DNA from: Klebsiella phage KMI11
Sequence record: MN101225.1
DNA length: 64,000 nucleotides
Strand: one strand, 5' to 3'
Of the stretch, positions 5,814 to 51,282 are shown piece by piece. How positions within the stretch are numbered: position 1 is the stretch's first letter; each line of letters starts with the position of its first letter. The notes below the pieces were generated by a model, which worked only from the letters and a program-made list of their open reading frames with translations, was not told the origin of the DNA and did not search any database. The position numbers and the translations under genes are program-made.

Positions 5814-7373
5814 TTAGATACCTTTAACCCATACACGACGGAAGTAAGCATTCTTACCAACAGAGTTGACGATAGAAGGCATACCAGAGGTAATACGACC
5901 TTTCGGCTGTTGAGCAGCAGAATCGGCGAACGGGTTAATACCGATACCGTAACGGGTTTTGAACCCCATGACCGGTTGGAAGTTCTTCGGATCGGAACCA
6001 CGCAGCGGGGTCAGTGCAACATACGGAGCATAGTAGATACCAGCATCCATTTCGTTAGCACCTTTATAACCGATGGTGAAGTAATCCTGACGAGCATACT
6101 GGTCGATGTATACACGGTAGCGACCACCCAGAACACCAGCAAATACTGCTTTAGTGGTGTCGGTATTATAACCACGACCCAGACCCTGAGCTGCCGGAGA
6201 TACGTTGGTATCAACAGCTGCCAGTACGTTAACTACGTTACGGGAAGCGATAATGAAGTTACCTTCACCGCGACCGGTCTGACGAGCGATTTCAGCGGAT
6301 TCTTTGTCAATCTGGAACAGCAGAGCTTTAAAGCTTTCACCTGCCCAACGAGCACCGCGGATATCAATCGGGTCTTGGAAGTCGAATACACCGGCTTTAG
6401 AACCAATAGTCTGGGTCATACCAGATTTACCAACCTGAGCGGAGTAGTTAATCCAGTCAACAACTTCACGGTTGATTTCCAGCATAATTTCGGTAGCCAG
6501 GATTGAACTCAGTTCAGCATCAGCGTCCATGCCATGAACAGCACGGAGGTCCTGAGCCAGTTCGATGGAATACTGTGCTTTCAGCTGACGAGATTTCGCT
6601 TCGATAGTTTGTTTATCGATACGGAAGCCCATTTCATTCCATGGGTTATCTTTAGAACCGTTAAATGCTTCTTGCAGTTCAGCAACGGAAGTAGCCATAC
6701 CTTCGGCGATTTCAACTACTTTACCAGCTTCCAGAGCAGCAGTAACTGCAGCGTCCAGTTTAGCAGCATCAGTAGCGCCAGCGTCTACAGTGAAATCTTC
6801 AACAACCTGCAGATGAGCACGACCGGTCTGTGCGAAATCGTGAACAACGATATCACCAACAGTCAGAGCATCACCAGCTTTAACTGCTTCGAACTTCTCA
6901 GTTGCACCCTGACCGGAGAACATTGCATCCGGAGCGTACATCGGATGGAAAGCTTCTTTAGCACCAGCAGCCAGAGGGTCTTTGCCGTAAACAGCGCGGA
7001 GAGCGAATACCTGACCGGTTGGGTTAGACATCGGCTGTACACCACAGATATCGAAAGCAATCAGGTTAGGGATAGCACGACGAACCATACCCATAACTGC
7101 CGGGCCAATCTGGGTTACAGCACCAGAGGTCTGACCAGCTGCGATGTTCTGTGCATCATAACCATGGTCACCGCCAATTTCTGCTTCAGACAGGAAAGAA
7201 CCAAATGCTTCAGCGATTTTTTCATCGCGGTATTCCGGAGCCTGATTAATATCAGCTTCCTGGTTTTCAAAAATCTTAGCGATCAGAGCTTTTTTGCTAG
7301 CGCCAACAATTTCCGGCAGAGCTTCGTTCTCAAGCAGCGGCTGCCATTTTTCGATAAGTTTATTCTTTTTCAT
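5814..7373 (-). CDS. 23: major capsid protein gp23
   Basis: 519 aa. The N-terminus MKKNKLIEKWQPLLENE... and overall collinearity match T4 gp23 (521 aa). Confidence 0.95.
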   Translation of the reverse strand: MKKNKLIEKWQPLLENEALPEIVGASKKALIAKIFENQEADINQAPEYRDEKIAEAFGSFLSEAEIGGDHGYDAQNIAAGQTSGAVTQIGPAVMGMVRRAIPNLIAFDICGVQPMSNPTGQVFALRAVYGKDPLAAGAKEAFHPMYAPDAMFSGQGATEKFEAVKAGDALTVGDIVVHDFAQTGRAHLQVVEDFTVDAGATDAAKLDAAVTAALEAGKVVEIAEGMATSVAELQEAFNGSKDNPWNEMGFRIDKQTIEAKSRQLKAQYSIELAQDLRAVHGMDADAELSSILATEIMLEINREVVDWINYSAQVGKSGMTQTIGSKAGVFDFQDPIDIRGARWAGESFKALLFQIDKESAEIARQTGRGEGNFIIASRNVVNVLAAVDTNVSPAAQGLGRGYNTDTTKAVFAGVLGGRYRVYIDQYARQDYFTIGYKGANEMDAGIYYAPYVALTPLRGSDPKNFQPVMGFKTRYGIGINPFADSAAQQPKGRITSGMPSIVNSVGKNAYFRRVWVKGI

Positions 7374-7393: not shown

Positions 7394-8206
7394 TTAAGAA
7401 AGACGAGCCGCTTGGGCCACATAAGCATCCATAACGGATGGGGTTTTAGTCGCAGGAGTTTCTTCTACTGCTTCAGTTGTGAAGTTTAAACCGTCTGCTT
7501 CTTTGTCGATAGTATTTATATCGGCAGATTCCGTTACAGACTGCTCTACAGAACCCTGCACCATTTCAACAATAGCTTTCAGCTTAGTTGAAAATGCGTC
7601 AGAATAATCCATGCCCTCTGTCAGAGAAACTACTTTCTCTTTTTGGGTATCAGTCAGTTCACGGGTTGCTTCTTGAATAGCATACTCGCGTTGGGCGTAA
7701 TTGATATAAGCATCACGCTTAGAAACTTCTTCAAATAAACGAGCAGTTTCTTCTTTTTGCTCAGCAAGTTCTTCTTCCATTTCAGCGACCACGTCTACTG
7801 ATTCTTCAGGAATTACAACATTGTGCTCAACAAACAGTTCTTTCATACCGCTAAACATGGATTCAAACAGGTCAGCTTTAATACCGCGGTCAACCGCCAG
7901 CTGGTTTTCTGCCATCCATTCTGCAGCGATATGGTCAAAGTATTTAGAAGCAGCTTCTTTCAGCTCTTCACGAGCTTCTTCTTTAGCTTTTTCTTTTTCT
8001 TCTTCTACTTTTTCTTCTGCTTTCTCAGCAATCTTTTCAATGTGAGATTCTGCCAGAGCTACGGCGTGTTTTTTGACTGTTGCTTCGAATACAGTGCTGA
8101 AGTTAGCTTTAGCTTCCGGAGAAAGCTGAACTGATTCGAAAATACTGTCAAGAGCGACGGAAGCATCGATAGTTTTAGCTTCGGTCATTAAAAGTTCTTT
8201 AAGCAT
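7394..8206 (-). CDS. 22: prohead core scaffold protein gp22
   Basis: 270-aa Glu/Lys-rich coiled-coil protein between 21 and 23. Confidence 0.85.
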   Translation of the reverse strand: MLKELLMTEAKTIDASVALDSIFESVQLSPEAKANFSTVFEATVKKHAVALAESHIEKIAEKAEEKVEEEKEKAKEEAREELKEAASKYFDHIAAEWMAENQLAVDRGIKADLFESMFSGMKELFVEHNVVIPEESVDVVAEMEEELAEQKEETARLFEEVSKRDAYINYAQREYAIQEATRELTDTQKEKVVSLTEGMDYSDAFSTKLKAIVEMVQGSVEQSVTESADINTIDKEADGLNFTTEAVEETPATKTPSVMDAYVAQAARLS

Positions 8207-8234: not shown

Positions 8235-8242
8235 TTATTTAT
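8235..8242 (-). promoter_or_regulatory. late promoter TATAAATA for gene 22
   Basis: TATTTATA on the plus strand, about 30 nt upstream of the 22 start on the minus strand. Confidence 0.55.
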
Positions 8243-8889
8243 AACGCTTTTAACTTCTCTGCGAGAGCCATAAAAGCATCATCAGCACTATTGGCAACTT
8301 GTGCCGAGGTATTTTCCGAAATTTGTTTCGGTTGTACCCATGCATCCGGAGCACTAGGACCCCAAACTGCGTCTACACCAACAGTCAGGCGAAAGCCTTC
8401 TTGTACGATGTTATATCCTTTTCCTGAGTCTTTTAAAGAACCGAGTCCACGGCTTGATACACCAGGAATCCAACCAGCACGGATGTTAGCGGCTAATTTA
8501 TCACCTGGACCGTGGTCTCCTTCGATGATTCTTGCACGCCCATAAACATCGTTGCCTTTCCACCACATATCTTCGATAATGATTGCGGCTTGCATCGGGT
8601 CAACATTTGCGCGAGGTGGATGGTTTAATTCTCCTAGAGCCTGACGAGTAGCAACCTGCTCCTTAATATAACGACTTACCGCAGTCTCAAGAATGCGTTT
8701 TGGATAAAGACGTTTATTACGGTTTACTACTTCTGCCTGCATAAAAACACCTTCAATATACAGACCAGGTTTTAAGCCAGATTCATTTTCGCCTTCAACG
8801 ATAATAGATTCTAGCATTGGTTTACCATCAATTACATCGCCCGGTTGACCCCAATGCTCAATTAAAAGTTGTTCATTGAGGTTTTCCAT
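8239..8889 (-). CDS. 21: prohead core protease gp21
   Basis: 216 aa (T4 gp21 is 212). Conserved order 21-22-23. Confidence 0.85.
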   Translation of the reverse strand: MENLNEQLLIEHWGQPGDVIDGKPMLESIIVEGENESGLKPGLYIEGVFMQAEVVNRNKRLYPKRILETAVSRYIKEQVATRQALGELNHPPRANVDPMQAAIIIEDMWWKGNDVYGRARIIEGDHGPGDKLAANIRAGWIPGVSSRGLGSLKDSGKGYNIVQEGFRLTVGVDAVWGPSAPDAWVQPKQISENTSAQVANSADDAFMALAEKLKAL

Positions 8890-47211: not shown

Positions 47212-47447
47212 TGGCTGTTGCAGTGCATGTAAAATTTGAAAACGGTGATACTCGCCTTCTGTGTTACAGTGATAACGAATCACTGAGCGGTATCGAGATT
47301 TCACTTAAAGAAGAACTGCTTGGTATTAATGGACCTATCTGTGATTTCTCAGTAGAGGGTTCATATAATTGTGATGGTGTACTAGAGTCTATGGTCTATA
47401 CTGCCATGGAAGATATTCTTGAAGAAAGTTGGAATGAATGCCAATGA
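47211..47447 (+). CDS. hypothetical acidic protein
   Basis: 78-aa ORF, coupled to its neighbours. Confidence 0.4.
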   Translation: MAVAVHVKFENGDTRLLCYSDNESLSGIEISLKEELLGINGPICDFSVEGSYNCDGVLESMVYTAMEDILEESWNECQ

Positions 47448-47890
47448 AAGAGCTCAGTGCAGGAATCTTATTCTTTACCGATGACAAACGGCTTTTCATG
47501 GGTCGTATGACAAATACATATGTCAAGGGCAGAGGCTCTAGATGGGATATTCCGAAAGGTCATGTTGAGCCTGGTGAAACACCGAAAGAAGCTGCTATTC
47601 GTGAATGCCAGGAAGAAACAGGGTTTACTGGGTTTGACCAGGACTTCTTATATGACCTCGGACGACACGATTATGACAGCAATAAGGATATTCATTTGTT
47701 TGGATATATGCTCCCTGTGAACCCAGAAGTGTTTAAGAATTGCTGTTGCACAGCTTACCATAAAGATGAAAATGGAATTTCTTTCCCGGAAACCGACGCA
47801 TTTGCTTTAATTAAACCTTCTCAATGGAAATATGTGATGGGACCAAGTTTGTATAAAATCATGACACAAATGTATAGCACAGCTCAGTGA
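47438..47890 (+). CDS. nudE: Nudix hydrolase
   Basis: Nudix box GHVEPGETPKEAAIRECQEETG. Lies directly upstream of e, as T4 nudE does. Confidence 0.8.
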   Translation: MPMKELSAGILFFTDDKRLFMGRMTNTYVKGRGSRWDIPKGHVEPGETPKEAAIRECQEETGFTGFDQDFLYDLGRHDYDSNKDIHLFGYMLPVNPEVFKNCCCTAYHKDENGISFPETDAFALIKPSQWKYVMGPSLYKIMTQMYSTAQ

Positions 47891-47897
47891 GGTTATT

Positions 47898-48206
47898 ATG
47901 GAAGAAGCCATTGAATTAGGCATTCCACACATTTATAAGCATGAGCTACGATTTATTCACGATGGAAAATGGGTTAGCATATTTCATCCTAGAGATAAAA
48001 TGTCGCGTATACTAATGAAATCACGATACGTCTTCGGTGACGGCGAGTATACAAAATCAGCATATTACATAGCAGAACAGCTATATCCGGGATTTAGTGA
48101 ATTGCCCGAGGACGATAAAAGAGATTATGTATGGTGGAAAGATAAATGGACGCCGTATGAAAATTGCAGCATTGACATGTTTATAGCCAAGTGTAGGGCC
48201 AAATAA
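47898..48206 (+). CDS. hypothetical protein
   Basis: 102-aa ORF between nudE and e. Confidence 0.45.
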   Translation: MEEAIELGIPHIYKHELRFIHDGKWVSIFHPRDKMSRILMKSRYVFGDGEYTKSAYYIAEQLYPGFSELPEDDKRDYVWWKDKWTPYENCSIDMFIAKCRAK

Positions 48207-48235
48207 ATACTCCTATAATTTAATAGGAGGTCCTT

Positions 48236-48730
48236 ATGGATATTTTTGGCATGCTGCGTATTGATGAAGGATACGATAGCAAAATTTATAAAGATACCGA
48301 AGGGTATTGGACCATTGGTATTGGCCACTTACTGACTAAAGACCCGTCAAAATCTTTGGCTATTTCTAACCTGGACAAGCTAGTAGGTCGTTCTACAGGT
48401 GGACAAATTACTCAGGCTGAGGCAGAAGTAATTTTTGCCAAAGATGTTGAGAAGGCAATTAAAGGTATTGTTGCTAATGCTACATTAAACCCGGTATATA
48501 ATGTATTAGATGATGTTCGTAGAGCTGCTCTGGTTAACATGGTATTCCAAATGGGTGTGTCTGGTGTAGCCGGGTTCCCAGCTTCAATGAAGTTATTACT
48601 CGCTAAAAAGTGGGAAGCTGCTGCCAAGGAACTTGCAAATTCACGTTGGTATCGTCAGACGCCAAATCGTGCTCGTCGTGTAATTGAAACAATGCGGACC
48701 GGAACTTGGTCTGCTTATCAAGGAAAATAA
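48236..48730 (+). CDS. e: endolysin (T4 lysozyme)
   Basis: M(D/N)IF(G/E)MLRIDEG...[20 protein letters not shown]...[24 protein letters not shown] is collinear with T4 lysozyme. 164 aa, the same as T4. Confidence 0.95.
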
Positions 48731-49210
48731 ATGAAAACTTATCAAGAATTTTTAAATGAATCCCGTTTAGCAACAGTTGGCGTAATGACTGAGTCTGTTG
48801 GAAGTAATCTTCTGAAATTTAAAAAAGGTCAGAAGATGACCGCCACGTTAGAAGATGGTACAGAAATTGAAATGGACGTTGTTGGATATAACTACGTAGT
48901 AGACGGCAAGTTATATAATAAGAGCCATGCCAAGTTTGATTCATTTGATGATTTCACCTCTTCTATTGAAGATGAGTCTTCTCGCAAAGCAGTAGCATCT
49001 GGCGATGCACGCTCCTTAATGGCACTTGGTCATGAGCGTATTAAGTCTAAGCAGAACAAACCTGGCGAAGATAACTTTGCATTAGTAGGTTATCAGTCTG
49101 GCAAAACTTCTAACGGTTACCAACGTACTGTCACTATGTACATGCGTAATGGTAAAATTGCATTCGTAAACGATCGCGGCGCTATTCGTTACGCTAAATC
49201 AATTAAGTAG
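48731..49210 (+). CDS. internal protein (IP) with capsid-targeting leader MKTYQEFLNE
   Basis: N-terminal MKTYQEFxxE matches the T4 capsid-targeting sequence, which the gp21 protease cleaves after LxE. Sits in the ipII/ipIII position next to e. Confidence 0.65.
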   Translation: MKTYQEFLNESRLATVGVMTESVGSNLLKFKKGQKMTATLEDGTEIEMDVVGYNYVVDGKLYNKSHAKFDSFDDFTSSIEDESSRKAVASGDARSLMALGHERIKSKQNKPGEDNFALVGYQSGKTSNGYQRTVTMYMRNGKIAFVNDRGAIRYAKSIK

Positions 49211-49242
49211 TTTACATTGAGACGGTAATGTGGTATAGTAGC
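49204..49242 (+). promoter_or_regulatory. early promoter GTTTACA-N19-TATAGT
   Basis: -35 GTTTAC at 49210-49215 and -10 TATAGT at 49235-49240. Confidence 0.45.
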
Positions 49243-49291
49243 CTTATTAAATGAAGGCTACTATGACACGCATTAACTTAAAGGATATAAA

Positions 49292-49864
49292 ATGAAAACC
49301 TATAAAGAATTTATCACCGAAGCTTCTGTAGGAAAGGTCCAAGGCATTAATAAAGATGAGTGGACCTACCGAGGAAACGGTTTTGACCCTAAAACAGCTC
49401 CTATTGAGCGGTATTTAGCTACAAAGGCTTCCGACTTTAAAGCCTTCGCCTGGGAAGGACTTCGCTGGCGTAACGATCTAAATATTGAAGCCGATGGGCT
49501 TAAATTTGGTCATATTCAAGATGTTGTTGCTAGTAACTTAGACGCAGCTTTTGTTAAAGCCGATGCAGACCTTCGCCGTTGGAATTTAAAACTATTCTCT
49601 AAACAGAAAGGCCCGGTATTTGTACCTAAAGCAGGTAAATGGGTTATTGATAATAAATTGGCTAAGGCTGTCAACTTTGCAGGCCTCGAATTCGCCAAGC
49701 ATAAGGCAGCCTGGAAAAATCTTGACGCCATGGCTTTCCGTAAAGAATTCGCCGAGGTTATGGCTAAAGGCGGATTTAAGGCAGATTTAGATACCACTAA
49801 AGGTACGTTTAAAGACGCTAATGTTCAATACGCTTACGCCGTTGCTAATGCAGCCCGTAATTAA
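49292..49864 (+). CDS. internal protein (IP) with capsid-targeting leader MKTYKEFITE
   Basis: Leader is identical to that of the next IP gene. Basic protein. Confidence 0.65.
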   Translation: MKTYKEFITEASVGKVQGINKDEWTYRGNGFDPKTAPIERYLATKASDFKAFAWEGLRWRNDLNIEADGLKFGHIQDVVASNLDAAFVKADADLRRWNLKLFSKQKGPVFVPKAGKWVIDNKLAKAVNFAGLEFAKHKAAWKNLDAMAFRKEFAEVMAKGGFKADLDTTKGTFKDANVQYAYAVANAARN

Positions 49865-50056
49865 AACTAATTCCTAATAAAGCTAAACACGACCTCTCCT
49901 CATGAACGTCGAGTCCTCTGAGTGAAGTAGCTTTCCCTACCTGTAATAAGGTCGAGCGCAAGTGCGGTAAGGGGTTTACATAGTGTGTCGATGGATTAAA
50001 CATGTGCCAAGGAATGGCCCCATTTAATTTAAAACTTTACCATTCTAGGATATAAA

Positions 50057-50362
50057 ATGAAAACTTATAAAGAATTTATCACCGAAGCAAAAGCACCAAA
50101 AGTATTCCAGATCTGTACCCAAGGAAATTTGGATAAAGAATTCGTCGATGCTATTGTGTCAAATCTTCGTAAGGAAGGCGTGCAAGTAGATTCAGTTGAA
50201 TGGACCAAAGGCAGTGATAATTTTATTATTACTGTATCTAAAGGTTCTTTGGCTAAAATTAAAAAGTCTTGGGGTGTAATGCGTGCTTATGATTTAAGCC
50301 ATGACGGCGATCAAGCCAAAGTACGAATGAATACCCTTAAGGGAGGCCGGGAATACGTTTAG
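50057..50362 (+). CDS. internal protein (IP) with capsid-targeting leader MKTYKEFITE
   Basis: The first 14 codons and the RBS (GGATATAAAATG) are nearly identical to those of the 49292 gene. Confidence 0.65.
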   Translation: MKTYKEFITEAKAPKVFQICTQGNLDKEFVDAIVSNLRKEGVQVDSVEWTKGSDNFIITVSKGSLAKIKKSWGVMRAYDLSHDGDQAKVRMNTLKGGREYV

Positions 50363-50440
50363 ACTTATTGCCTATACTTATCAAAATATTACACGGACTA
50401 AGCACGCGCCAAGGAATGGCCCCTTTAACTGGAATCTAAA

Positions 50441-50974
50441 ATGAAACACTTAACTCCCATTTATTTGACCCTGATGCATGCTTTCAGAGACGCTGCAGAC
50501 AGACGATTGAATAATCCCAACTACAGTTTTTATGAACCGTCTTGCCTTATGCGAGAGTACGGTACCCTTCGTCTAGACGGTGGAAGACAAACCGGAAAGA
50601 CTGCAGCCTTATGTCAATTCGCTACCGATTGGTTGCTTGAAGATGGTTCGGTTATAATCTTATCTACTCGATACACACAATCATCTGAATTGATGGAAGG
50701 TATTCTACGAGAATATAATTCATCGCATTTAATTAATAAATTACCGGCTAACGAGATAGCTAAATCAATTGTTCCGATGACAATCAGGGAATTTCTATCC
50801 AATGATTCCTCTTACAAGTTTAGGGGAAGAAAGTTTGGAAGAGCATTAATTATCATTGAAGAACCAATGAAAGTTCCCGATATGATGAAGTTCTATGATA
50901 TGTACCAGGAAGCTATCAGATGGTCTATGCCTAATGATACCTTACCTTTATTTTTCGTGATAGGAATGCAATGA
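50441..50974 (+). CDS. P-loop containing hypothetical protein
   Basis: Walker-A-like GGRQTGKT and a hydrophobic acidic motif LIIIEEP. Confidence 0.45.
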   Translation: MKHLTPIYLTLMHAFRDAADRRLNNPNYSFYEPSCLMREYGTLRLDGGRQTGKTAALCQFATDWLLEDGSVIILSTRYTQSSELMEGILREYNSSHLINKLPANEIAKSIVPMTIREFLSNDSSYKFRGRKFGRALIIIEEPMKVPDMMKFYDMYQEAIRWSMPNDTLPLFFVIGMQ

Positions 50975-51282
50975 TGACACAGACAGAAATTGTTGATATG
51001 ATTACAGTAATGGAAAATACAGGATTTGCCGATATGAAGCAATTAATAACAATGGTTACGGCTGGCAACCTGCTTGAGTACAAGCGCTACAAGTTTCTGT
51101 CTGGTCCGTTTAAAGGTGCAGAATTCATTTCTAACGCTCCTAACACGAAGTGGATGAATCGCTATCCTAATTTTAGAATTGAGTTTATATCCGGTAAGCT
51201 CAAAGGCGTGATTAGTTCAAGCTTAATCACATATGACCAACGCATTCAAGAGAAAACAATGCAATGGCTGAAATTGTTATAA
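50971..51282 (+). CDS. hypothetical protein
   Basis: 103-aa ORF, ATGA-coupled. Confidence 0.4.
   Translation: MMTQTEIVDMITVMENTGFADMKQLITMVTAGNLLEYKRYKFLSGPFKGAEFISNAPNTKWMNRYPNFRIEFISGKLKGVISSSLITYDQRIQEKTMQWLKLL

Follow-up and report, generated by a model that had tools for sequence, protein, structure and literature searches.

A conserved, predicted pseudoknotted RNA element beside three internal-protein genes in the e/vs.8 locus of Klebsiella phage KMI11

The capsid-targeting leader of T4-type internal proteins (IPs) sends these proteins into the prohead core, and they are injected along with the DNA (PMC3012670). Repoila et al. (1994; cited in PMC4122927 and PMC12373910) described the IP1 and IP2-IP3 loci, with their conserved leader, as polymorphic, and exchange at the IP loci was later linked to shuffling mediated by the promoter-early stem-loop (PeSL) (Comeau et al. 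2014, PMC4122927; Arbiol 2010, PMC2839356), whose consensus in T4 and PST is TTTACW N17 TAYWAT (PMC4122927). Each of the T4 proteins Ip1, Ip2, and Ip3 is an inhibitor of a single, particular GmrSD type IV restriction enzyme; for Ip3 this is the two-gene GmrSD of E. coli ECOR17 (PMC12373910). On this strain ipIII is required, its action being cytoplasmic (Srikant et al. 2022, bioRxiv 10.1101/2022.04.14.488369). Here we analyze the equivalent region of Klebsiella phage KMI11 (positions 48,731 to 50,440 of a 64,000-nucleotide (nt) stretch of sequence record MN101225.1, referred to as the window), which encodes three leader-bearing proteins (IP-A, IP-B, and IP-C) and contains, between the second and third of their genes, a noncoding element of ~145 nt that appears to be structured.

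The window shares 99.2% identity with Klebsiella phage JD18 and related phages (Jiaodavirus, Tevenvirinae), and the locus is the known polymorphic e/ip3/ip2/denV/vs.8 hyperplastic region of a JD18-like T4-type phage; the order in T4 is e, ipIII, ipII, denV, vs.8. Our explanation of the whole, to which we assign a probability of roughly 0.8, is an e/vs.8 locus carrying three injected IPs together with a conserved pseudoknotted RNA element that ends in a hairpin (P5). An original prediction made from the KMI11 sequence had proposed internal proteins and cassette exchange at this place; that reading is right, but has been known since 1994, and the IP array adds no new concept, being one more hotspot of genes for injected anti-restriction proteins. 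The pseudoknotted element is widespread and is annotated as coding in T4; as far as could be established, it is apparently undescribed.

A probable RNA element upstream of vs.8

The element came into view through a short repeat, which the original prediction took for an upstream signal of the IP cassettes. Its recurrence was correctly noticed, a few bases away from where it lies: GCCAAGGAATGGCCCC (16 nt) is found exactly twice, at 50006-50021 and 50408-50423, and with up to three mismatches the window contains three matches against 0.22 expected, a number reached in none of 100 shuffles. The repeat extends to 32 nt, over which the two copies (Table 1) are 84% identical. Its proposed role was not upheld; the motif instead forms the 3′ terminus of a structured element whose place is in front of vs.8, and it corresponds to hairpin P5, whose stem appears as GCCA/UGGC, GGCA/UGCC, GACA/UGUC, or CAGCA/UGCUG around a constant NGGA(A) loop.

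For comparison, 41 loci were gathered from IMG/VR via homologs of Vs.8 and combined with T4 and the window (43 loci). In 39 of the 41 IMG/VR loci a conserved segment of ~120-170 nt, ending with the motif, lies directly 5′ of the Vs.8 start, its own 5′ boundary being the stop codon of the preceding gene, whether this is an Ip7-type gene, an Ip3-type gene, denV, or another. The IP-B/IP-C spacer of KMI11 aligns with the T4 denV/vs.8 junction and the first 44 annotated vs.8 codons, motif included. The core of the element, ACCTGTAATAAGGTCGAGCCCAAGTGCGGTAA, is almost invariant, while the Vs.8 proteins are only 35-50% identical. A covariance model, made from the 16-sequence alignment described below, finds one full copy (166 bits) and a partial 17-bit match ending at 50422 in the window, and 44 copies in the loci. 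By blastn the element is present in 884 phage records, from phages infecting Escherichia, Klebsiella, Shigella, Enterobacter, Yersinia, Salmonella, Citrobacter, and Erwinia, where it either carries no annotation or is labelled a hypothetical protein; in VR20 it is an unannotated 160-nt gap between ip7 and Vs.8.

Searches of Rfam 15 with window positions 48000-51000 and with four diverse loci including T4 gave no relevant match at E ≤ 1, a literature search on vs.8 or T4-like structured RNA found no relevant description, and when the element core was sought in bacterial and archaeal genomes, the matches listed were chance hits of at most 22 bits. The T4 stable RNAs rnaC and rnaD were considered as relatives and are unrelated.

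Covariation across these sequences supports a fold of several helices (Table 1). An unfitted MAFFT alignment of 16 sequences has 94.7% of its cells paired; both partners are altered in five pairs, compared with 2.2 in shuffles (five was reached in 6 of 500) and at most one when the partners are slid. Among 41 distinct sequences there are 14 such pairs against 7.7 ± 1.1 in shuffles, with none of 500 reaching this number, and all five P1 pairs switch (AAAGG/CCUUU, GGGAA/UUCCC, AAGC/GCUU). A further, long-range helix was proposed by RNAalifold outside the original model, from an alignment that was not fitted to it. It occurs in six variants (CCG/CGG, CAC/GUG, CGC/GCG, CCA/UGG, UCG/CGA, and CUG/CAG), its three core pairs are paired in ~95% of cases, and its covariation score is 0.452 versus 0.132 in shuffles (0/500) and at most 0.105 with slid partners. 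Since this helix crosses P1 and P4, the fold would be a pseudoknot.

Variants of the element were seen in several loci (L063, 2222-2477; L075, 2226-2481; L087, 2248-2390; L059, L062, L064, L066, and L069, around 2300-2475; and L065 and L079). Some of the variant loci have two tandem copies, the first of them without P5; others have an extra inserted hairpin with a covarying stem (CTAGC/GCTAG, CCACC/GGTGG, CCATC/GATGG), and L065 and L079 carry an insertion of ~30 nt in the P4 loop. The element is missing altogether from L072 and L083.

The position of the element bears on the annotation of T4. The KMI11 open reading frame (ORF) of 177 amino acids (aa) is 37% identical to T4 Vs.8 over residues 45-219, and the first ~40 annotated codons of T4 vs.8 (L003, NC_000866, 2781-2913, minus strand) run through the element. 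Relatives of T4 have a TAG there and start at MRTFLTGP, with GAGAAGAA just 5′; the T4 frame stays open because a 9-nt tandem duplication (CTTATAGAG twice) removes the stop. Judging from these alignments, the real T4 Vs.8 is probably ~179 aa long, and the element has been mis-annotated as its N-terminus.

As to function, the element may be a cis-acting leader of the downstream gene, responsive to a protein or a ligand, to which we give a little less than even odds. It is a conserved structured domain, apparently on the sense strand, immediately 5′ of one gene family (vs.8, 39 of 41 loci); no U-tract terminator, no conserved alternative pairing, and no clear platform for sequestering a Shine-Dalgarno (SD) sequence was found in it, and in Jiaodavirus a whole gene separates it from vs.8. 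That it is a stable RNA, or serves in processing or stability, is possible, with a somewhat smaller chance, and a ribozyme is improbable. Doubtful, and still worth stating, is the combined proposal that the element represents a new class of functional RNA, either a ligand- or protein-responsive Vs.8 leader or a processing ribozyme, the terminal hairpin of which might also act as a recombination anchor for swapping in injected-protein genes.

Internal proteins and gene exchange at the locus

The leader pattern MKTY(K/Q)EFI(T/L)E had been ascribed to all three genes. It describes the second and third, which have the same leader, MKTYKEFITE; the first begins MKTYQEFLNE, of which EFLNE is off the pattern. 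The close similarity reported for the ribosome-binding site (RBS) and start of the second and third genes is real, amounting to 41 of 42 nt (49282-49323 versus 50047-50088, the RBS plus 30 coding nt), and the RBS and start of the first gene match the same region at 76%. Near-identical leaders occur only in particular adjacent pairs (IP-B/IP-C in the window, ipIII/ipII in T4); concerted evolution of leaders within genomes was considered and rejected overall, the mean identity being 0.735 within and 0.709 between genomes. The leader in T4 is removed by the gp21 protease, which cleaves at the motif (L/I)-x-E, and residues 8-10 read LNE in IP-A and ITE in both IP-B and IP-C. No further ORF with a capsid-targeting leader was found anywhere in the 64-kb window, so that, should the window include a counterpart of the T4 ipI locus, this would be without an IP gene.

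That the three genes encode capsid-targeted internal proteins, as had been proposed, is borne out by the leader, by the RefSeq record of JD18 (which names all three internal virion or internal head proteins), by their PHROG families, and by the presence of gp21, gp22, and gp23 in the window. IP-A matches Pfam DUF7412 at 4.9e-94 and phrog_3155 (“internal virion protein”), and one homolog is called “lp4 protein” by its source. IP-B is 88% identical to T4 IPIII (Ip3), with 190 of 193 aa aligned (E 5e-126). IP-C belongs to phrog_2667 (“internal head protein”) and is 58-62% identical to Ip7-type proteins of VR5/VR20-like phages, a family annotated as Ip7 in VR7/VR20-type phages; it has only the first 12 aa in common with T4 IPII. 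An AlphaFold2 (AF2) model of IP-C shows a beta-alpha-beta-beta-alpha-beta core at residues 14-80 (predicted local distance difference test score, pLDDT, 72.6), for which a fold search gave generic ACT/ferredoxin-like matches only; the AF2 model of IP-A (pLDDT 58.8) is unreliable and too poor for use. No solved structure matches IP-A, IP-B, or IP-C by sequence in a search of solved chains, and NCBIfam has no models for the three proteins.

Packaging of one of these families is supported by a virion dataset from liquid chromatography with tandem mass spectrometry that covers two related Jiaodavirus phages (PMC13119998 supplement). An ortholog of IP-A from one such phage (WKM80649.1, 97% identical) is represented by at least 66 spectra in CsCl-purified virions; among the rows listed in that supplement its leader peptide TYQEFLNESR never appears, and the next tryptic peptide, LATVGVMTESVGSNLLK, appears at least three times. 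In KMI11 the 10-residue leader would target the three IPs to the prohead core and end at a gp21 site, so that the bodies would be packaged and injected with the DNA; we infer that both leader cleavage and injection take place in this phage. The Vs.8 homolog of a related Jiaodavirus also has at least one virion spectrum among those rows (PMC13119998), assigned to a six-frame entry that starts upstream of MKYLTPIYL, which may be contamination.

The bodies of all three proteins had been put forward as candidates for novel anti-restriction activities. This fails for the 190-aa protein, an 88% identical ortholog of T4 Ip3 with a published GmrSD target. IP-A and IP-C, which belong to named, uncharacterised families (Ip4-like and Ip7-like), would by analogy most plausibly be further single-target inhibitors of host defence.

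Cassette exchange, the last part of the original prediction, is confirmed by the comparison of the 43 T4-like loci. The interval 5′ of vs.8 contains up to four leader-bearing genes, with or without denV, in varying order, and the bodies encoded by the 74 leader-bearing ORFs make up at least 14 families that show no detectable similarity to one another. In KMI11 denV has been cleanly deleted; its MTRINL codons remain 5′ of IP-B (Table 1), and the breakpoints lie in AACTTAA microhomologies. Shark_ER15 retains a 408-nt denV at the deletion site of the window, and pKp20, Shinkou, and JIPh_Kp122 have a similar insertion of ~420 nt relative to the window. As a result of the deletion, KMI11 appears to be without a pyrimidine-dimer glycosylase at this locus.

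The same comparison suggests why the motif is duplicated. Five loci (L067, L076, L080, L082, and L086) have the empty-site order ip3-type gene, element, vs.8, and Gaprivervirus-like and related loci have an Ip7-type gene immediately 5′ of the element; in Jiaodavirus (the window, L047, L060, and L011/L057) an Ip7-like gene follows P5, and a second copy of the final ~32 nt of the element stands before vs.8. The end of the element is thus present on both sides of the ip7-like gene, the footprint that would be expected if recombination at this 3′ end had inserted the gene or replaced an allele. The vs.8 alleles of three Jiaodavirus sublineages are only ~45% identical to that of the window (45-46% in L057 and L060), and each sublineage has its own version of motif copy 2, a pattern consistent with recurrent exchange by crossing over within or close to the short motif homology. 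Such an insertion would be analogous to the integration of PeSL mini-circles (PMC2839356), though the motif is no PeSL. L057 and L060 have the same layout of ip3, element, and ip7-like gene, with the Vs.8 allele replaced within otherwise near-identical surroundings.

The neighbouring genes and the genes for head assembly are listed in Table 1. Just 5′ of gene e, a hairpin, CTCCTATAATTTAATAGGAG (48210-48229), sequesters the AGGAG Shine-Dalgarno sequence of e. In T4, e is translated from late transcripts only, those that start inside the e hairpin, and the KMI11 hairpin resembles that arrangement. No canonical late promoter (TATAAATA) occurs on the plus strand between 43258 and 56310.

Table 1. 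Positions in the window of the e/vs.8 locus features, of the predicted helices of the element, and of head-assembly genes
Feature	Position or length	Strand	Basis
nudE	47438-47890	+	
e.2-like ORF	between nudE and e	+	
Gene e, T4-type lysozyme (left anchor)	48236-48730	+	Pfam Phage_lysozyme; T4 e at equivalent position
IP-A, 159 aa, “Ip4”/DUF7412 family; leader MKTYQEFLNE encoded at 48731-48760	48731-49210	+	
Spacer IP-A/IP-B	81 nt		
PeSL-like early promoter, TTTACA N17 TATAGT	49211-49239	+	Promoter scan, 10/12 matches plus TG
Stem-loop overlapping the PeSL-like promoter	49230-49245 / 49254-49269	+	Inverted repeat
denV relic, first six codons (ATGACACGCATTAACTTA) joined to the IP-B RBS	49263-49281	+	Alignments with Shark_ER15 and the T4 denV start
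IP-B, 190 aa, T4 Ip3 (IPIII) ortholog; leader MKTYKEFITE	49292-49864	+	phrog_5341
Spacer IP-B/IP-C	192 nt		
Structured noncoding element, ~145 nt	49876-50020	+	Covariance model score, 166 bits
Helix P1	49879-85 / 49928-34		
Pseudoknot helix	49887-90 / 49983-86		
Helix P2	49897-902 / 49919-25		
Helix P3	49935-38 / 49971-74		
Helix P3a	49939-42 / 49949-52		
Helix P3b	49956-57 / 49964-65		
Helix P4	49978-81 / 50002-05		
Helix P5	50006-09 / 50015-18		
Motif copy 1 (3′ strand of P4 plus hairpin P5)	49993-50024	+	
IP-C, 101 aa, “Ip7” family; leader MKTYKEFITE	50057-50362	+	
Spacer IP-C/vs.8 homolog	78 nt		
Motif copy 2 (duplicated 3′ end of the element, directly 5′ of vs.8; P5 at 50408-11 / 50417-20)	50395-50426	+	
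vs.8 homolog, 177-aa P-loop protein (right anchor)	50441-50974	+	phrog_1488; weak Terminase_6N match
gp21-type prohead protease	8239-8889	-	Pfam Peptidase_S77 at 7e-99
gp22 scaffold	7394-8206	-	T4_CASP
gp23	5814-7373		Gp23 match

Weighing the alternatives

Several points weigh against an RNA fold and injected IPs as the explanation of this locus. The eight helices were drawn by eye from some of the sequences later used for counting; shuffled sequence folds at least as well as the element (z = +1.4), and single-sequence folding gives no stability signal on either strand. RNAalifold alone recovers part of the structure, the raw MAFFT alignment yielding three short hairpins only, and P4 is weakly supported. 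Counts of G-U versus A-C (35 versus 42) leave the strand unsettled overall, with only P3 favouring the sense strand (19 versus 1). The direct repeat could have been kept for a function in vs.8 expression and not as an insertion scar. On the protein side, no peptides matching IP-B or IP-C are among the listed rows of the PMC13119998 supplement, and Silas et al. found no target for ten further ip genes that they tested (PMC12373910), so that an anti-restriction role for IP-A and IP-C is argued from analogy only.

The low folding stability would also suit an account in which the two motif copies are chance or neutral leftovers with no structure and the covariation reflects relatedness: many of the sequences are close relatives, the shuffle controls ignore phylogeny, and the z-scores of the minimum free energy are unimpressive. 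We consider this unlikely, since slid-partner controls, in which the relatedness is kept, yield far fewer pairs with compensation, complementarity of the pseudoknot is seen in six independent triplets, the inserted extra hairpin covaries too, and the core is nearly invariant despite the divergence of the flanking Vs.8 proteins. Conservation of the 145 nt as protein-coding sequence, either as an N-terminal extension of Vs.8 (as in the 219-aa T4 protein) or as a small antisense ORF, which some records of Klebsiella phages annotate, is the least probable of the alternatives. The RefSeq vs.8 of T4 does start 44 codons upstream and read through the element, and a 52-aa minus-strand ORF (49845-50003) is annotated as a hypothetical protein in Shark_ER15. 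However, any given reading frame stays open in at most 15 of the 41 sequences, and the element has one-nt indels and paired deletions (e.g., CUCA/UGAG to CUA/UAG); the open frame of T4 is closed by TAG just before MRTFLTGP in close relatives, and protein homology of Vs.8 begins at T4 residue 45. The 49845-50003 frame is open in only 15 of 41, and the 52-aa ORF is therefore probably spurious.

It is also very unlikely that the motif is a regulatory signal shared by the IP genes, such as a promoter, an operator, or a translational enhancer, as its place 35 nt 5′ of the IP-C start (copy 1) and the SD-like AGGA in the hairpin loop might suggest. The motif is missing 5′ of IP-A and IP-B, copy 2 precedes the leaderless vs.8 homolog and not an IP cassette, most genera carry the motif before vs.8 only, with Ip7-type genes upstream of the whole element, and there is no sigma-70 or late-promoter consensus at the motif. 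Somewhat less remote, and still improbable, is that the repeat is itself a PeSL, a mobile cassette mediating T4-type gene shuffling. A direct repeat around a single small accessory gene is the product of PeSL mini-circle integration (PMC2839356), and a true PeSL-like element lies nearby (49211-49269); but a sigma-70-like promoter, a stem-loop, and an SD sequence are found together at 49211-49291 and not at the motif, where neither copy has the −35/−10 hexamers TTTACW N17 TAYWAT. Moreover, the motif is not dispersed, with one full and one partial copy of the element in 64 kb, and it ends a 145-nt element that has its own conserved fold. The chance that the element is a self-cleaving ribozyme like that of hepatitis delta virus (HDV), cutting at its 5′ edge and splitting the ip/denV message from vs.8, is about as small. 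The helix order P1, pseudoknot, P2, P1′, P3, pseudoknot′ is a nested double pseudoknot, and the element always starts at the stop codon of the upstream gene. Against this, no invariant C precedes the 3′ strand of the pseudoknot (UUUACAU in standard types, UAAAUA in T4 types), P1 has 5-7 base pairs (bp), starting with A or G and without a conserved G-U, the P2 hairpin has 6 bp plus an extension and not 3 bp, no P1.1 was identified, and Rfam gave no match to an HDV family. Our preferred explanation remains a conserved pseudoknotted RNA element belonging to vs.8, with its end repeated on the far side of an ip7-like gene.

Significance and comparison with described systems

If this explanation is correct, a conserved pseudoknotted RNA without an Rfam family would sit in T4, among the most-studied phages, and in at least 884 T-even-type genomes; its recognition would correct the annotation of T4 vs.8 and give a handle on the function of Vs.8. 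It would also mean that the ends of structured RNAs, besides PeSL promoters, can be the points at which gene modules are exchanged. Two concrete candidates for activity against Klebsiella type IV restriction, relevant to host range in phage therapy, are the bodies of the Ip4-like and Ip7-like proteins.

Among the described systems, the IP2-IP3 locus of Repoila et al. occupies the same place, between e and vs.8 with denV, has a like leader and RBS, and is likewise variable in the number, order, and identity of its IP genes. KMI11 differs from it in its set of genes (Ip4-like, Ip3, and Ip7-like), in the loss of denV, and in having the Ip7-like gene downstream of the RNA element and not upstream. 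IP-B shares with T4 Ip3 its leader, its locus, and identity over the whole length; the host here is Klebsiella, and inhibition of a GmrSD enzyme is predicted. T4 IPI* is a GmrSD inhibitor with a solved structure. IP-A and IP-C have the same delivery logic (leader, gp21 site, small body), but are without a sequence match to any solved chain.

PeSL cassettes likewise have a short conserved noncoding direct repeat around one accessory gene, marking module junctions; the KMI11 motif differs in being promoterless and part of a 145-nt fold that is predicted to be pseudoknotted. With riboswitches, protein-binding leaders, and HDV-like ribozymes the element would share a multi-helix junction, a pseudoknot, and invariant unpaired nucleotides, whereas it matches no Rfam family and departs from HDV-like ribozymes in the features that define them.

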